In this document: in pieces, positions 6,262 to 36,452 of the stretch | Layout of the letters: each line of letters starts with the position of its first letter | How positions within the stretch are numbered: the first letter of the stretch is position 1 | Source of the DNA: a virus | Reading direction: 5' to 3' (one strand) | IMG/VR virus record: IMGVR_UViG_3300045988_030546 | DNA: 40,163 nucleotides | Made by a program: the position numbers and the translations under genes | Notes under the pieces: generated by a model | Told to the model about the DNA's origin: nothing | The model's input: only the letters and a program-made list of their open reading frames with translations | Databases searched by the model: none

Positions 6262-6333
6262 GCAGACGTAGCTCAGTTGGTAGAGCACCGCACCAGGAGG
6301 TATGCGCAGGTTCAAGTCCTGCCGTCTGCACCA
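6262..6333 (+). tRNA. tRNA-like element with aberrant, shortened anticodon arm (isotype undeterminable; possible pseudo-tRNA or processing/structural module)
   Basis: Acceptor GCAGACG/CGTCTGC, D arm GCTC-AGTTGGTA-GAGC, T arm GCAGG-TTCAAGT-CCTGC, discriminator A and an encoded CCA are all canonical. Only 19 nt (ACCGCACCAGGAGGTATGC) lie between the D and T arms, where about 22-23 are expected. The best pairing is CGCA/TGCG around a 10-nt loop, CCAGGAGGTA. Confidence 0.6.
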
Positions 6334-7000
6334 CGGCGGGGAGCGTTTCGGGTGATGCGTCCTCGCTCCAAGAATATAAGCTGCGGCCTGTAAAAGCAGC
6401 TCGCCTCCGGCAACTGGTACTTGCCCTTGACGCCCCGGTGCAATTCCGGTTGGGTATAGGACCCCTCGCACCTCTCAACGATGTGTCCCAGAGGGGACAT
6501 TTGAACAAACTACGCTGCCGAAGTTCCAGCAGGTCACTGTGATTGCGCACGGTGGCAGCAGTTTTAGACGGCAGTACCGCAACGAAGGGCAGAACAGGCA
6601 GCTGCCGCCCGGACGTGAGGTCGCAAATGCTCATGCTGTTGGAGATGCCGGAGCGCTGACCGGCTCGTTGCGGAGATATACGGCATAGGTGCCCCGCAAG
6701 GGGCGACCACAGCGAGTGACGCCGAATGATGGCCGAAGTGCTAAAGCAGGGCAGGACTGCAATGCCGTACCATCCCGGTTAGCGGGCGAGGAAGCGTAAA
6801 AAGCTAAGTATTAGGCGGCTGGTATAATTGCCAAGTTCCTAATGGCTGGTAGGAAGACGCAGCGCAGCCGGGAGCCGATAAAAAAGATCTTGCGTACCAT
6901 GTTTGGCTCGGGGAGAGCCGGACACGCAAGATGTGTATGCCCTTCGGGGCGGGTAAAGTCTGCTATGTAAGGCCAAGGGGCGGGGGCTGGTAGCAAAACA
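6334..7000 (+). ncRNA. Candidate large structured noncoding RNA (class unknown; ROOL/GOLLD-like context)
   Basis: No credible ORF. Many strong hairpins are present, including GNRA-capped (6691-6704) and UUCG-capped (6939-6950) helices and a 9-bp stem enclosing a second hairpin (6887-6932). It lies directly 3' of a tRNA-like element. Strand and ends are inferred only. Confidence 0.45.
6820..6828 (+). promoter_or_regulatory. Possible extended -10 element (TGgTATAAT) upstream of the methylase/packaging genes
   Basis: TGGTATAAT was read directly. No good -35 is present, and the site lies inside the putative ncRNA region. Confidence 0.25.
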
Positions 7001-7010
7001 GGAGGATGGC

Positions 7011-8144
7011 ATGGAAATCACAAAACGGCGGCTTGCGGATATTGTACCGTATGCCGCAAACGCAAAAAAGCATGATAAGCGGCAAATCAACAACGTTGCG
7101 GAGAGCATCAAGCAGTACGGCTTTGTGCAGCCGATTGTGATTGACCGTGATGGCGTGATCGTAATCGGCCACTGCCGCGCTCTGGCGGCAAAGAAGCTAG
7201 GCATGGAAGAAGTACCATGCGTCTGCGTGGACGATCTCACACCGGAGCAGGTGAACGCTCTGCGGCTGGTGGATAACAAGAGCAACGAGAGCGACTGGGA
7301 TTTTGACCTGCTGGCTGACGAACTGCCTGATCTTGACCTGTCGGCGTTTGACTTTGATTGGGGCTTGCCGGAAGATCAACAGGAAGAAGTTATTGAAGAT
7401 ATGGCTCCCGCAGTAGATGAAGAAAACGATCCGGTTGCAAAGCCTGGGGATATATGGAAACTGGGAGAACACCGCTTAATGTGTGGGGACAGTACTAGTA
7501 TTGATGCCGTGGAAGCCCTTATGGGGGGGCAAATGGCAGATATGGTGTTCACTGATCCGCCATACGGCTATAGCTATCAGAGTAATATGCGCGAAAAATC
7601 GAAGAAGTTTGATGTATTGGAGAATGATGATAAAATTCTCGACTTCTTCCCCAATATTAGACTTTTGTGCAATGGATTCGTTTTTATTTGCACGACATGG
7701 AAAGTTCTGGACAAGTGGCTACCGCTGTTCAAACAATATCACGACCTGACCAATATGATAATTTGGGACAAAGGCGGCGGCGGGATTGGCGACCTCAAGC
7801 ACACATTCTCAACAGATTATGAAGTGATTTTATGCTCTAACAATGGGCGAGAAATTAAAGGAAAGCGGATCGGGTCTGTTTGGAATATACCAAAAGATTC
7901 GGCCAATGAGTACGCGCACCCGACACAGAAGCCGGTGAAGTTATCTGAATTTGCAATACGCAACACGACCGAACGGGGCGGAACTGTCCTCGATTTGTTT
8001 GGAGGGAGCGGAAGCACATTGATTGCTTGTGAGCAGTTAGACCGGAGATGTTGCATGATGGAGCTTGACCCGCGCTACTGCGATGTAATTATTAAACGAT
8101 GGGAGCAGTTTACGGGAGAAAAGGCGGTGCTTCTACATGACTGA
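7011..8144 (+). CDS. ParB-like N-terminal domain fused to N6-adenine/N4-cytosine DNA methyltransferase (orphan)
   Basis: The N-terminus ...NAKKHDKRQINNVAESIKQYGFVQPIVI...GHCRALAAKKLG is ParB/Srx-like. It is followed by ...VFTDPPYGYSY... (DPPY motif) and a C-terminal ...HPTQKPVKL...VLDLFGGSGST (AdoMet motif). No restriction-enzyme partner lies nearby. Confidence 0.9.
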   Translation: MEITKRRLADIVPYAANAKKHDKRQINNVAESIKQYGFVQPIVIDRDGVIVIGHCRALAAKKLGMEEVPCVCVDDLTPEQVNALRLVDNKSNESDWDFDLLADELPDLDLSAFDFDWGLPEDQQEEVIEDMAPAVDEENDPVAKPGDIWKLGEHRLMCGDSTSIDAVEALMGGQMADMVFTDPPYGYSYQSNMREKSKKFDVLENDDKILDFFPNIRLLCNGFVFICTTWKVLDKWLPLFKQYHDLTNMIIWDKGGGGIGDLKHTFSTDYEVILCSNNGREIKGKRIGSVWNIPKDSANEYAHPTQKPVKLSEFAIRNTTERGGTVLDLFGGSGSTLIACEQLDRRCCMMELDPRYCDVIIKRWEQFTGEKAVLLHD

Positions 8145-9982: not shown

Positions 9983-11338
9983 GTGGCGGTGGGCGAGGAC
10001 GAAAAGGCGCGGATGGAGTTTATCCGCAGCGCAATCAACGAGCACCGCGAATCCCACGCATATAAGACGGCGGCGGATGCTGAGGAATATTACAACGGCC
10101 TGAATCCGACCATTAATCGCTATGAAAAGATCATCTACGATATGCAGGGCCGTTCCCACACGGATATGTGGACGGCAAACCATAAGCTGGCCAGCCGCTT
10201 CTTTGGTCTGGCGGTGGATCAGGAAGTTTCCTATCTTCTGGGTAACGGCGTAACCTTTGCGGAGAAGGAAACGCCGAACAAGCTATGCCCGGACTTCGAC
10301 CAGGAAGTCATGGATGCGGCGCGTGAAGCGAAAATCGCAGGCGTGTCCTTCGGTTTCTGGGATCTGACGCATTTGCGCGTGTTCTCCCTGCTTGAGTTCG
10401 TCCCCCTCTATGATGAAGAGGACGGTGCAATGAAAGCCGGTATCCGGTTCTGGCAGGTGGCACAGGATAAGCCTCTGAGAGCGACGCTATATGAGACCGA
10501 CGGCTTTACCGAGTATTTCCAGCCCAGCGGCGAGGATATGTCCGTCATGCAGCCGAAGCGCAGTTATAAGCTGATCGAGCGCAAGGCGGAGGTCGGCGAA
10601 ACCGAAATCTATGACGGCGGGAATTATCCGAGTTTCCCCATCGTGCCGCTGAAAAACAACAAGCGGTGTCTCTCCGAGATCGTCGGCAAGCGCAACACCA
10701 TTGACGCACTCGACCTTGCATCCTCTAACATGGTCAACAACGTGGACGAGGGCAATCTGATCTATTGGGTGCTTTCTAATTGCAACGGCATGGACGATCT
10801 GGACGATGCAAAGTTTATTGAACGGCTGAAAACCACCCATGTCGCCCACGCGAATGGCGATGATGGTGCAAAGGTGGAAAGCAAGACCATCGAGGCTCCC
10901 TATGAGGGCACCAGCAGCACCATTGATATGCTCAAAAAGAAGCTGTACGAGGATTTCCAGTGCTTTGACGCTGCGGCGGTATCCGCAGGGAACCAGACGG
11001 CGACCGCAATCAAGGCCAGCTATGTGCCTCTGGATTTGAAAACGGACAAGTTTGAATCCGAGGTAACGCGGTTTATTGTTGAGATTCTGCGTTTGGCAGG
11101 CATTGAGGATCAGCCGAGCTATACGCGCAATCAAATTATCAACAAGAGCGAGGAAACGCAGAACATTCTGCTGGGAGCGGCGTATTACGATGACGAATAC
11201 ATCACAAAGAAGCTGCTGACCATCAACGGCGACATTGACCAGTACGAGGATATGGCAAAGCGGAAGGCAGCAGAAGAACTTGACCGGAGCTTTGAAGATC
11301 CGGACGCGCCGGGGGTGAGCGGCGATGGCGACCAGTGA
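9983..11338 (+). CDS. Portal protein (SPP1 Gp6-like)
   Basis: 451 aa with an acidic C-terminus, located right after terL and before MuF. GTG start; an alternative ATG lies at 10013. Confidence 0.9.
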   Translation: MAVGEDEKARMEFIRSAINEHRESHAYKTAADAEEYYNGLNPTINRYEKIIYDMQGRSHTDMWTANHKLASRFFGLAVDQEVSYLLGNGVTFAEKETPNKLCPDFDQEVMDAAREAKIAGVSFGFWDLTHLRVFSLLEFVPLYDEEDGAMKAGIRFWQVAQDKPLRATLYETDGFTEYFQPSGEDMSVMQPKRSYKLIERKAEVGETEIYDGGNYPSFPIVPLKNNKRCLSEIVGKRNTIDALDLASSNMVNNVDEGNLIYWVLSNCNGMDDLDDAKFIERLKTTHVAHANGDDGAKVESKTIEAPYEGTSSTIDMLKKKLYEDFQCFDAAAVSAGNQTATAIKASYVPLDLKTDKFESEVTRFIVEILRLAGIEDQPSYTRNQIINKSEETQNILLGAAYYDDEYITKKLLTINGDIDQYEDMAKRKAAEELDRSFEDPDAPGVSGDGDQ

Positions 11339-32718: not shown

Positions 32719-33738
32719 TTAAGAGAGATGCAGCAGCTCTTCAAATCGCTGGTCAATCTCTTCGGAATACTTTTTCTGTTCTTCCTGAATGGTGTGCTGG
32801 TAGACGGTTTTCAGCATATTGTCTGTGGCGTGACCCATGCGTTCCTGCGCGTATTTATTAGGGACGCCGACTGCCAGCATGACAGAGGCGTTCATGTGCC
32901 GCAGATCATGGAAGCGGAAATGGGGGGTCCCTGCCTTTTCACAGATACGTTCAAAGCCGTTATACATGGCGTGACCGGACAGGTTTACAATGTGTTCTTT
33001 GGAATGATCCTGTGCCTGAATCAGCGCGGCGAGATATGGGGGCAGATGCAGGGTGCGGGTTCCACTGAACGTCTTCGTCCCTTTTTCGACAGGGCCAGCT
33101 TCGCCCTGGACGATAGCCCGTTTGACGGAAATATATTCGCCGTCGATATCTTCCCATTTCAGGCCCCGTATTTCAGAAGCCCGCAAGCCCAGCCATACGG
33201 CCAGCAAGATCGGCAGCTCATATTTCGTCTCTTTGGCTGCTTTGAAAATGGCGGATAGTTCTGCCTCGGACGGGATCGCTATCTTCGGCTTCACCTTTTG
33301 CGGAAGCGTTGTGCGGAGCGTCATATCCGGGCGGTAGGACGCAAGGACGGCGCTCAACAGGCCGTGGGCATTGGAAACGGTCTTTGGCTTTTTCCCCTGC
33401 TTGACCAGCGCATTTACCCACCGCTGCACCTGCTCCTGGGTCAGGTTTGCCAACGGCATATTTGCAATCGGTTCCAACAGGTTCTTTTGGATCCGGCGAT
33501 ACCCGGCGACTGTGGCAGGTGAGAGGACGGCGCTTTTGCTGTCTATATATCGGTCAAATGCTTCCGTCACGGTCAGGGCTATATTATGCTGGGCGCTTTT
33601 GATGCCGGATTTCAGAGCAGCCGCTTCCCGCTCCGCTTCCTTCTTCGTGGGCATGGTGATGGAAATCCGCTGCCCATTTACCATGACGTTTACATACCAA
33701 CTTCCGGATGGAAGTTTTGTTGCTTTTGGTATCTTCAT
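32719..33738 (-). CDS. int: Tyrosine-type site-specific integrase
   Basis: 339 aa. An N-terminal SAM-like/arm-binding region is followed by ...LAVWLGLRASEIRGLKWEDID..., ...HDLRHMNASVML..., ...ERMGHATDNMLKTVYQH (R..H-x-x-R..H..Y catalytic layout). Confidence 0.93.
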   Translation of the reverse strand: MKIPKATKLPSGSWYVNVMVNGQRISITMPTKKEAEREAAALKSGIKSAQHNIALTVTEAFDRYIDSKSAVLSPATVAGYRRIQKNLLEPIANMPLANLTQEQVQRWVNALVKQGKKPKTVSNAHGLLSAVLASYRPDMTLRTTLPQKVKPKIAIPSEAELSAIFKAAKETKYELPILLAVWLGLRASEIRGLKWEDIDGEYISVKRAIVQGEAGPVEKGTKTFSGTRTLHLPPYLAALIQAQDHSKEHIVNLSGHAMYNGFERICEKAGTPHFRFHDLRHMNASVMLAVGVPNKYAQERMGHATDNMLKTVYQHTIQEEQKKYSEEIDQRFEELLHLS

Positions 33739-35090: not shown

Positions 35091-35322
35091 GCAAAACGCT
35101 TGTGACACTGGAGAAGCCGGCAACGACAAAGTCGTGCTTTCTCTGCTTTTGGCGATCAATGACCGCCTGTCTCTCCTTCCGGTCATTCTCGGCCTGTTGG
35201 TAGGCAACATATTGGCGAAGCTCATCGATGCGCTTTTCTTCTAATTTCTTGAGCTGTCCAGCTGCGGAATCATCCTCGCTGATATAGCCGGTCTCAAACC
35301 CGTCCTTCAACCAATCGTTCAT
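35029..35322 (-). CDS. Hypothetical protein with C-terminal hydrophobic segment
   Basis: ATGA-coupled to the repressor gene. Charged coiled coil followed by ...FVVAGFSSVTSVLLTLLV.... Confidence 0.5.
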   Translation of the reverse strand: MNDWLKDGFETGYISEDDSAAGQLKKLEEKRIDELRQYVAYQQAENDRKERQAVIDRQKQRKHDFVVAGFSSVTSVLLTLLVEHFHKVLSFVLSIFS

Positions 35323-35657
35323 CGCTTGCTCATCAAAAATTGCGCATAGCGCAACAACTCGTTCAACTCGGCGTCGGTCGCCGTGTCGATAAAATCAAAC
35401 AGCTCTTGAATGGTAGGACTTACGCCCTCGATCTTCGGATCGAGGGTTTCTTTTTTCCCCGACAGGGCATCACCGACCAGCTCGTCAACGGTCACATGGA
35501 AGTAATTTGCGACTTTCAATACCGTTGCATCACGAGGTTTCGTTCCTGACTTCCATCTTGTTACAGACGGCTTCCCTAACTTTAATTCGATTGCCACAGC
35601 AGAGGGAGATTTTCCTATTTTATTGCACAGATGCACATAGTTTTCGTAAAAAGCCAC
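35319..35657 (-). CDS. CI-like XRE-family repressor
   Basis: GTG start with GGAGGGGG upstream. ...LCNKIGKSPSAVAIELKLGKPSVTRWKSGTKP... is an HTH. Divergent from a consensus rightward promoter. Confidence 0.8.
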   Translation of the reverse strand: MAFYENYVHLCNKIGKSPSAVAIELKLGKPSVTRWKSGTKPRDATVLKVANYFHVTVDELVGDALSGKKETLDPKIEGVSPTIQELFDFIDTATDAELNELLRYAQFLMSKR

Positions 35658-35716
35658 AGCTATGCCCCCTCCGTTTTGTGCAATATAATAAAGTTTCGTA
35701 TGTTATCACTTATCTG

Positions 35717-35745
35717 TTGACAGTTCCGCTTGTTAACGCTATAAT
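35717..35745 (+). promoter_or_regulatory. Consensus sigma-70 promoter, rightward (early lytic, PR-like)
   Basis: TTGACA (35717-35722), a 17-nt spacer, then TATAAT (35740-35745). Flanked by inverted GTTATCA half-sites (35703-35709; 35764-35770). Confidence 0.78.
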
Positions 35746-35884
35746 AAGCCTGTAGGTTGCAAATGATAACACAAACCCAAACCCAAGCGAAACCGCCTGT
35801 GTTTGAAAAAATTATTATGTTCCTCGCAAGTTCATAATAACACGGTTAGTTAACTTATGCAACCCTAAAGTTGACTGCGGCGGA

Positions 35885-36185
35885 GAAAAAAGCACCCGTG
35901 GTTCGTTCACGGATGCTTTTCCCCCAAATTTGTTTACCAAAACGCGTTGCACGGGATGGTCGGACACTTTGCTTCGCATTCGTCCGAATTGATGGGTTTC
36001 TTTCCATCGGCTCGGCAATGCCATCCCGGCACAAAACGAACTTGCGCTTCTATGACGCACCGCTCACTTTGACAGTTTTGGTTCTGCCCTTTGCCCTATC
36101 GCATCGCGCCGTTTCTTCGGTTTGGAACGGGCAAAGTCAAAAGGTTGGTCAAGAAACCACCTCCTTGAGATTGCCACAGAGGGCT
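35885..36185 (-). ncRNA. Predicted antisense RNA of about 300 nt, complementary to the early-operon leader
   Basis: Bounded by a near-consensus leftward promoter (36192-36220) and a hairpin with a T-rich tract (TTTTTCT, 5-6 T) on the minus strand (35917 down to 35884). Contains a three-way-junction-type fold (35952-36028). Confidence 0.5.
35891..35917. terminator. Hairpin terminator, stronger for leftward than rightward transcription
   Basis: AGCACCCGTG-GTTCGTT-CACGGATGCT (10 bp, one mismatch). It is followed by TTTTT(T)CTC on the minus strand but only about four T (3 unpaired) then CCCCC on the plus strand. Confidence 0.6.
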
Positions 36186-36191
36186 AATGGC

Positions 36192-36220
36192 AGTATAGCA
36201 AATCTCCCCGCCGCAGTCAA
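36192..36220 (-). promoter_or_regulatory. Near-consensus sigma-70 promoter, leftward, with extended -10
   Basis: The minus strand reads TTGACT-gcggcggggagatttgc(17)-TATACT, with TGc immediately upstream of the -10. It points into the 500-nt early leader. Confidence 0.72.
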
Positions 36221-36245
36221 CGAAATTAACAATTAAAAGGGAGGA

Positions 36246-36452
36246 ATGACATTGCTTGAAGCATGGACTGGCCGAGCGGTCGGTAAGATGCACATGAACC
36301 GCATCTCGTTTGAAGATGTCGCTGGGGAGCTGGGCGTGACAAGGGCGTACATCAGCATGATCTTGAACGGCAAGCGGAAGCCGCCTGACGCACGGAAGCG
36401 CGTGGAGGGCGCAATCGACGCGATCATCAAGCGGCGCGCCGGGGAGGACTAA
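36246..36452 (+). CDS. Cro-like small HTH protein
   Basis: AAAAGGGAGGA RBS. ...ISFEDVAGELGVTRAYISMILNGKRKP.... Confidence 0.7.
   Translation: MTLLEAWTGRAVGKMHMNRISFEDVAGELGVTRAYISMILNGKRKPPDARKRVEGAIDAIIKRRAGED

Follow-up and report, generated by a model that had tools for sequence, protein, structure and literature searches.

What lies in the 500-nt leader, poor in open reading frames (ORFs), that precedes the first early gene of the phage in IMG/VR virus record IMGVR_UViG_3300045988_030546 (a stretch of 40,163 nucleotides (nt), here called the window), and why should a second promoter fire back across it toward the repressor gene? The original prediction was of a discrete antisense RNA of about 300 nt, transcribed leftward through the early rightward leader in the immunity region. 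The interval is near certain to hold a complete minus-strand gene, ~300 nt long (~36185 to ~35884), for a structured RNA of the FuFi-1 class. FuFi-1 (RF02986) was the one strong Rfam match in the region when the whole window was scanned (117.7 bits against a gathering cut-off of 59.6, E = 3.5e-25). The leftward RNA has, in addition to its own predicted promoter and terminator, a curated family to belong to; the earlier account was right about a discrete leftward RNA, and missed which family it is.

In 2017 FuFi-1 was among a handful of widespread bacterial RNAs picked out because their conservation hinted at a sophisticated function. Its discoverers considered that its features point to a 'sophisticated biochemical function', reported no self-cleavage, judged a riboswitch improbable, gave its function as not known, and met the motif only rarely in potential 5' untranslated regions (UTRs) (Weinberg et al. 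2017, PMC5737381). The main text of that paper attaches to FuFi-1 neither a function nor a phage-switch context (PMC5737381), and a full-text literature search found no paper after 2017 that mentions it. The window element is a member of this known and functionally orphan RNA family; what is new is its context in an immunity region. The orphan is now tied to a fixed position there, where it meets the early promoter head-on and is directed toward the repressor gene, and this fixed place, together with the extended anatomy set out below, makes its function directly testable.

The FuFi-1 gene and its fold

Read from its 5' end, the gene runs from an extended -10 promoter through a 5' hairpin, a Shine-Dalgarno (SD) sequence and a TTG-initiated micro-ORF to the family core, an unpaired GGUAAACAAAUUUGG and an intrinsic terminator. 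Its parts are, in that order:

36192-36220, minus strand: P_FuFi, the FuFi-1 gene promoter, TTGACT-17-TATACT with a TGc extended -10 (10/12 consensus positions plus the TG)
36173-36184, minus strand: GCC-CUCUGU-GGC, the 5'-terminal hairpin with which the predicted transcript opens, read from predicted folds
36160-36166, minus strand: SD sequence AAGGAGG, 7 nt ahead of the TTG start
36096-36152, minus strand: micro-ORF, TTG start, 18 codons, peptide MTNLLTLPVPNRRNGAMR, with its stop inside the first stem of the FuFi-1 core
35886-36109, minus strand: FuFi-1 RNA core, full model positions 1-175 of 175
35952-36028, minus strand: expanded hairpin, a CGGGAUGG/CCAUCCCG stem carrying a 57-nt branched insertion
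35924-35938, minus strand: conserved unpaired stretch GGUAAACAAAUUUGG, directly before the terminator and upper-case in the Rfam consensus
35886-35920, minus strand: intrinsic terminator, a 13-bp stem plus U6

The window copy, at about twice the gathering score, fits the FuFi-1 architecture of an outer stem around a small hairpin followed by a multi-stem junction with two hairpins. It shares with the family the hairpins, the conserved junction and loop nucleotides and the 3' terminator, all of the conserved nucleotides being present: the GCAGAACCAAAACUGC hairpin, the AUAGAAG junction and GGUAAACAAAUUUGG, then the Rho-independent terminator. It differs in the 57-nt branched insertion and in a weak first stem, which has two non-canonical pairs when set against the Rfam model. 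Conservation and covariation of the leader in related phages, named at the outset as a way of checking the idea, are found: RNAalifold applied to 15 cores (the window and 14 homologues) reproduces the Rfam helices, with compensatory changes in 30 of the 37 core pairs. Many of the G-U pairs would become C-A mismatches on the other strand, so the functional fold is that of the window's minus strand.

The hairpin at 35891-35917 that had been expected to terminate the leftward transcript proves to be FuFi-1's own 3' terminator. Its arms (35888-35900 and 35908-35920) are 13 nt long and 92% complementary, its stem covaries among the 15 cores, and the run of U that follows is U6 on the minus strand (A6 at 35886-35891) as against four, T4 at 35917-35920, on the plus strand. 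A three-way junction read into the interior fared less well. Its helix CGGGATGG/CCATCCCG (35952-35959 / 36021-36028) is made of exact 8-mers and the junction is present in the minimum-energy fold of the minus-strand RNA (z = -4.8), yet it is a lineage-specific insertion outside the FuFi-1 core features: in the Rfam alignment the 57 nt sit in the loop of the model's third hairpin, where most homologues have a short GAAA-type loop and where L048, L156, L124 and L143 (homologous loci, and the clusters named after them, carry L numbers here) have unrelated long insertions.

Could the leader simply be coding? A conserved protein spanning it, which the original prediction had allowed would count against an RNA, is absent on either strand in the 29 clusters of homologues described below. 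In no more than 2/29 is any frame open across the unit, on either strand, and the coding explanation was rejected, the window's 121-aa (amino acid) plus-strand ORF (35871-36236) and its 81-aa minus-strand ORF not being conserved.

A conserved setting, and a possible countertranscript against the early promoter

The window has an integrase gene at 32719-33738, which together with the CI-like and Cro-like genes around the interval marks the region as the immunity region of a temperate phage. The neighbours of FuFi-1 there are:

35319-35657, minus strand: CI-like repressor gene, 112 aa, Cro/C1-type helix-turn-helix (HTH), HTH_3 and HTH_26 matches
35717-35745, plus strand: PR, the consensus early promoter, TTGACA-17-TATAAT, a 12/12 match in a consensus scan
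35701-35708 (minus strand), 35764-35771 and 35835-35842 (both plus strand): three T[GA]ATAACA repeats around PR
36246-36452, plus strand: Cro-like first early gene, 68 aa, HTH (HTH_3, E = 1e-5)

PR is predicted to read antisense over the entire FuFi-1 unit and on into the Cro-like gene, whose start is 25 nt past the -35 box of P_FuFi; in the other direction the CI-like gene has the same orientation as FuFi-1 and lies 229 nt past its terminator. From the position of P_FuFi the FuFi-1 transcript would start near 36185. Both promoters had been proposed by eye and hold up well: the consensus scan gives 7 promoter-like sites against 2.2 +/- 1.5 in shuffles, and PR and P_FuFi rank best among them. 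Between the FuFi-1 terminator and cI, candidates for a promoter co-oriented with cI are weak in the window, 9/12 only. The three T[GA]ATAACA repeats make up all but one of the 4 copies in the 40-kb window, none of which is at P_FuFi, and to judge from their place near PR they are probably repressor operators. A further proposal had been that CCACCTCCTT (36157-36166, plus strand), an anti-SD in the PR leader, pairs with the SD of the Cro-like gene. Both are present, but their pairing is not supported: the local fold that contains it is no better than that of shuffles (z = -1.0), and it vanishes when the whole leader is folded.

How general is this arrangement? Homologues were fetched by exact-word scans with two independent FuFi-1 words, GGUAAACAAAUUUGG being one of the search keys, and ~150 true copies were obtained, some on viral contigs and others in the genomes of gut Clostridia (Lachnospiraceae, Oscillospiraceae, Acutalibacteraceae, Faecousia, Eubacterium and Ruminococcoides); locus L146 is on contig NZ_JBBMEY010000008.1 of the cultured Ruminococcoides intestinihominis CLA-AA-H171. 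Since conserved words of FuFi-1 itself were used to fetch them, the invariance of those words is by construction; with the independent key, GGUAAACAAAUUUGG is exact or 1-2 positions off in 64/78 loci. The first word yielded 61 distinct complete units, falling into 29 clusters at 92% identity or less, and Rfam confirms FuFi-1 in 14/14 representatives tested (79-147 bits). FuFi-1 is a family of Firmicutes or Fusobacteria; the related sequences here are from Firmicutes (Clostridia), and the closest to the window are gut viral contigs and Clostridia genomes or metagenome-assembled genomes (MAGs) of Eubacteriales, Lachnospiraceae, Oscillospiraceae and Ruminococcoides; its cI region resembles that of a Flavonifractor phage. 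No named cultured phage was found to have FuFi-1, one unannotated faecal phage record matching partially.

In 14 of the first 15 loci the next downstream gene on the same strand, 55-1022 nt away, is of Cro/CI-type HTH, and three of these genes carry a Peptidase_S24 domain, the mark of classical cleavable repressors; such an HTH gene is also downstream in most of the 29 clusters. Between the terminator and the HTH gene, 23/29 clusters have a facing promoter matching at least 11/12 consensus positions, a density of 0.70 per kb where the remainder of these loci has 0.053 per kb (13-fold enrichment), and at a 10/12 threshold the count is 27/29. PRM-like sites co-oriented with cI occur in the terminator-to-repressor interval of 10/15 loci scanned at 10/12. 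On the other side of the core, the 5' module of hairpin, SD and micro-ORF is upstream in 73/75 loci and in 68/78 new loci found with the independent key, and in 10/13 representatives a promoter-like site has its end 35-43 nt ahead of the start codon of the micro-ORF, L074 having the same spacing. Two layouts are seen, with FuFi-1 either in the PR leader ahead of the first early gene or just past a small opposite-strand cro-like gene; in both, FuFi-1 faces cI and lies antisense to the first part of the PR operon. The face-to-face promoters beside the repressor that had been noticed in one phage are, by their recurrence across clusters, a conserved design and not a local accident, and the recurrence of the unit's features, in unchanged order, in 29 clusters shows that chance does not account for them.

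The reading that we put first, at about an even chance of being correct, is that FuFi-1 is a countertranscript, or more broadly a convergent transcription unit, that restrains early lytic expression. In a lysogen, with PR repressed, P_FuFi would fire freely and FuFi-1 would accumulate. Convergent transcription from P_FuFi could interfere with polymerases escaping PR, and the perfect complementarity of FuFi-1 to the PR leader could let it pair with the escape transcripts; the two effects together would reduce expression of Cro and the early genes and so stabilise lysogeny. On induction, strong transcription from PR would overrun P_FuFi and silence it. The terminator would shield PR, PRM and cI from P_FuFi transcription, and the 5' module most likely stabilises the RNA by its hairpin, strong SD and short ORF, while perhaps also gating its folding, ORF codons 6-8 being able to pair with the core. 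If this role is true, there is a conserved RNA layer in the lysis-lysogeny decision of many human-gut Firmicutes phages.

Countertranscripts from promoters convergent with the early promoter are familiar in P22 sar and in lambda OOP and PRE. Like sar, FuFi-1 is a small countertranscript from a (predicted) promoter facing a strong early promoter, is intercistronic or in a leader beside a small repressor gene, ends at an intrinsic terminator, and is to be expected mainly when the opposing promoter is quiet. The sar RNA is ~69 nt with little structure, is found in close relatives only and covers the ant ribosome-binding site, whereas FuFi-1 is 300-480 nt, elaborately folded, conserved across heteroimmune phages, equipped with its own SD and ORF and, in the window, clear of the downstream gene's ribosome-binding site. 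OOP and PRE are likewise leftward and convergent with PR, opposing early rightward expression and favouring the repressor side, and the PRE transcript, antisense through cro into cI, is akin to the layout with a cro-like gene between FuFi-1 and cI. OOP, of 77 nt, targets cII; PRE needs activation by CII and has no terminator before cI, while P_FuFi, being near-consensus, looks constitutive, and a strong terminator ends its transcription unit. P1/P7 c4 and P4 CI are also structured RNAs of phage immunity regions that act on early transcripts. They are processed from a same-strand transcript and work by short loop complementarities to sites in it, in contrast to FuFi-1 with its own promoter on the opposite strand.

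Several considerations weigh against a countertranscript as the whole story. The promoters, start site and termination are all predictions, and the overlap of FuFi-1 with early mRNA is deduced from predicted promoters. Two of the 29 clusters, L121 and L138, have no facing promoter. The homologues, all fetched with conserved FuFi-1 words, are confined to phages and MAGs of gut Clostridia. Conservation in loops and single strands surpasses what a simple antisense RNA of the OOP or sar type would need, and the persistence of primary sequence in loops, junctions and the 15-nt unpaired stretch across phages with differing repressors points to an extra conserved partner. A conserved SD and start codon are unaccounted for by antisense action. 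The view of the discoverers that the function is a sophisticated biochemical one (PMC5737381) pulls in the same direction.

A 5' module that may bind ribosomes, and what else the RNA could be doing

To judge by sequence comparison the true FuFi-1 unit is larger than the Rfam model, adding the promoter, the 5' hairpin, a long-range helix and the SD with its micro-ORF. With its 175 positions the family model is limited to the 3' part and lacks this 5' module; the micro-ORF and the 8-bp long-range helix sit at or beyond its 5' edge. Almost all clusters have a hairpin equivalent to that of the window, UGCC-loop-GGCA or one of its variants GCCC/GGGC, GCGC/GCGC and ACGC/GCGU, and in a partly misaligned alignment 79% of its cells are paired and 2 pairs show double changes. 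The start of the micro-ORF is preceded by a purine-rich, SD-like sequence (mostly AAGGAG) in 29/29 clusters. The TTG-initiated 18-codon micro-ORF first noted in the window is accordingly no peculiarity of this phage: in the 29 clusters its first 10 codons are kept as M-[T/S/K]-x-[L/F/I]-L-x-L-P-[A/V]-P, and the start is always NTG (ATG, GTG or TTG, the last commonest, CTG never). Its length varies from 10 to 40 codons, the position of the stop not being conserved. Ribosome binding at the micro-ORF is plausible on this evidence.

Part of the micro-ORF is also part of the fold, through two elements:

36129-36136, minus strand: element b, CUUUGCCC, micro-ORF codons 6-8 and 5' arm of the long-range helix
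36089-36096, minus strand: element b', GGGCAAAG, in the 'internal loop' of stem P1, pairing with b

This is the 8-bp helix CTTTGCCC/GGGCAAAG (36089-36096 / 36129-36136) of the original prediction, made of exact 8-mers, and it recurs with covariation among homologues. The partner of codons 6-8, UUGCC[U/C], is [A/G]GGCAA in the first core stem's internal loop, and b:b' thereby forms a pseudoknot with the FuFi-1 stem P1. As MAFFT, applied to the 5' module and the b' region, misplaced b' in divergent clusters, the pairing was counted from fixed points in the sequence, GCC on one side and on the other the final GGC ahead of the hairpin. So counted, CCC goes with GGGC in 5/5 clusters and CCU with AGGC in 18/22, and between the window and L156 there are two double compensations in the helix; an overall permutation test of b:b' was weak (129 of 2000). 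A candidate hairpin that would sequester the SD (AGGAG-UGGU with ACCA-CUUUU) is conserved, mostly G-U and almost without covariation. Two other pairings were tried and rejected: an alternation of the 5' hairpin with b:b', whose pattern is broken by the L008, L052, L095 and L121 clusters, and a pairing of GGUAAACAAAUUUGG with micro-ORF codons 2-5, for which covariation was not seen by eye.

Many phages have more between micro-ORF and core than the window does. In ~18/29 clusters, for example L045, L019, L043 and L008, there is a conserved ~110-nt module, absent from the window and outside the Rfam model, with the pattern AAGGUCGCA..CCAAAGCAC..UAAAACUGG..ACUGAUACGGCG..CUCAGAGAAGAG..hairpin..GUACUCCUU and an anti-SD-like ACUCCUU at its end. 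L138 and L148 have an extra copy of the 5' module (SD plus ATGACAAACTTTTTGAAC...) ~395 nt upstream of the complete unit, with no FuFi-1 15-mer after it.

The combination of a 5' hairpin, a very strong SD and a short ORF is also that of the 5' stabilisers and leader ORFs of Firmicutes, such as STAB-SD of cryIIIA and the aprE and ermC leaders, where ribosomes that bind or stall shield the RNA behind them from 5'-to-3' decay. What follows those elements is a protein-coding gene, whereas the body of FuFi-1 is non-coding and part of the ORF pairs with it.

That last feature invites a reading in which ribosomes do more than protect. P_FuFi would drive a cI transcript, much as lambda PRE does, and the micro-ORF, the FuFi-1 fold and the terminator would form a leader-gated attenuator: whether the terminator forms would depend on ribosomes occupying the first 10 codons, or on the binding of a ligand or protein to the core, and when it did not, read-through over PR into cI would couple the repressor to the state of the host. 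We regard this as rather unlikely in each of its parts. FuFi-1 is co-oriented with the CI-type gene that so often comes next on its strand (the 14/15 loci and most of the 29 clusters above), and its position, convergent with PR and reading back to cI, is that of lambda PRE. Conservation of SD, NTG and the first 10 codons but not of the stop is what would be expected if only early ribosome occupancy mattered, and since codons 6-8 pair, covarying, with the core, translation and folding would be mutually exclusive. In complexity the core equals a riboswitch aptamer, and a terminator comes directly after it (PMC5737381). Several points speak against this reading. An antiterminator pairing that would take up the 5' half of the terminator was not found in predicted folds, b:b', with its weak permutation test, being the sole alternative pairing seen, and the terminator, at 13 bp plus U6, is strong. 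PR and usually a PRM-like promoter intervene before the repressor gene; with PRM-like sites in 10/15 loci cI needs no read-through, the window's candidates being only the weak 9/12 ones. The motif is moreover rare in potential 5' UTRs according to its discoverers (PMC5737381).

Given similar and equally limited credence is the possibility that FuFi-1 is a structured RNA acting in trans through a conserved partner, a protein or an RNA of host or phage, its overlap with PR being incidental. On such a view, which seems doubtful, the site in the immunity region would only ensure expression from the prophage, and the task might be superinfection exclusion, titration of a host factor or some other biochemical one, none of which we would rate as probable. 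Loops and the unpaired GGUAAACAAAUUUGG are conserved across phages with unrelated repressors, the RNA has its own promoter and terminator, and it behaves as an exchangeable cassette with sharp borders, the same backbone carrying different variants. The invariant position and orientation to PR (27/29 clusters) would be unnecessary, however, and among the loci examined no protein is consistently associated with it besides generic HTH regulators. A trans target for GGUAAACAAAUUUGG within the window was sought and rejected, there being no second complementary site beyond chance.

Features of these readings can be combined. FuFi-1 might then be a third, RNA-based component of the lysis-lysogeny switch of a large group of gut Clostridia phages, gated by ribosomes, in which the conserved 10-codon leader ORF and pseudoknotted core sense the translation capacity of the host, or a ligand or protein, and set either the read-through to cI or the level of countertranscript against PR, with the core also acting in trans to give cross-immunity. 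We advance this tentatively and would not expect it to be right. If it were, the early leaders of incoming heteroimmune phages with FuFi-1 would be open to trans action by a resident prophage, an RNA cross-immunity.

Is the peptide itself the effector, with the RNA merely its structured mRNA? An SD-like sequence at the right spacing in all clusters, the strict avoidance of CTG among NTG starts, and a conserved N-terminal decapeptide (MTKLLxLPxP...) whose changes are conservative (T/S, L/F/I, A/V) would suit a small protein-coding gene. What is conserved in the manner of a gene is, however, only the SD and the NTG start. Variation by codon position is flat (entropy 0.68 / 0.62 / 0.71) and three-base periodicity absent, the ORF lengths of 10-40 codons are those expected of random sequence, downstream nucleotides are conserved alike whether the frame is open or closed, the conserved codons overlap RNA helices, and ~200 nt of conserved, covarying RNA follow the stop. 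A functional micro-ORF peptide is unlikely, and the reading that makes it the effector is highly improbable.

Flanking repeats and the borders of the unit

The unit is bracketed by an inverted repeat:

36205-36221: left arm, GTTGACTGCGGCGGGGA on the minus strand, overlapping the -35 box of P_FuFi
35870-35886: right arm, directly past the terminator, at the edge of a mosaic module

The 13-mer originally noticed at 35871-35883 (plus strand) and 36208-36220 (minus strand) is exact and extends to 17 nt at 94%, and there is no further exact copy of it in the 40-kb window. The same arrangement, TTGACTGCGGCGGGGA on the -35 box of P_FuFi and its inverse directly after the terminator, is found in the window, L040 and L052 clusters, the units of the latter two being 70-80 nt longer than that of the window with the repeats in equivalent positions. 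The L029/L036 and L048 clusters have repeats unrelated in sequence at similar positions, and in about two-thirds of the clusters examined a convincing flanking repeat is absent. The borders are sharp: window and L117 share 94% identity inside the arms, against ~60%, or background, beyond them. L117 and L034 have flanks identical to those of the L040 cluster outside the repeats and carry the short, window-type unit (~340 against ~410 nt). The occurrence of one backbone with a short or a long unit indicates, from these alignments, that modules have been exchanged exactly at the repeats.

With its left arm upstream of the FuFi-1 start site, the repeat is not complete in FuFi-1 RNA and cannot act there. 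When the PR leader is folded, the arms are predicted to make a helix that closes the whole antisense domain; the repeat could equally be such a closing helix, a joint left by recombination or two sites for a binding protein.

That the unit is a small mobile or invertible DNA cassette, a notion not exclusive of the others, in which the 16-17-nt repeats are termini like those of miniature inverted-repeat transposable elements (MITEs) or recombination sites at which the FuFi-1 unit, terminator included, is inverted with respect to PR, would suit the exact repeats of three clusters (and the unrelated ones of others) and the coincidence of mosaic borders with repeats, but is very unlikely: all copies examined have one orientation relative to the early gene and cI, which leaves DNA inversion unsupported and, with repeats in some clusters only, led to rejection of an invertible promoter segment or MITE; most clusters do without a convincing repeat; the window sequence shows no target-site duplication, and neither an invertase nor a transposase accompanies the unit; and the repeat may as well have one of the other two roles just named.

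Elsewhere in the early region of the window, an ORF at 37119-37388 matches the Lar restriction-alleviation family (PF14354, 29.7 bits). FuFi-1 is also not the only orphan RNA in these elements. The window has a skipping-rope RNA (RF02924, 49.8 bits) at 6578-6672 on the plus strand, this being another orphan motif of the 2017 paper (PMC5737381). It lies ~250 nt after an Rfam tRNA match (6262-6330, 54.6 bits) that ARAGORN did not call and upstream of a 377-aa ORF (7011-8144) resembling, by eye, a ParB-like nuclease fused to a DNA methylase. A skipping-rope RNA is also present in L052, at 10560-10630 and ~3.5 kb from the FuFi-1 of that locus, so that the two orphan RNAs co-reside in at least two prophages. 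A FuFi-1-bearing viral contig, L057, has a RAGATH-31 RNA (RF03101, 75.9 bits) at 2776-2829.

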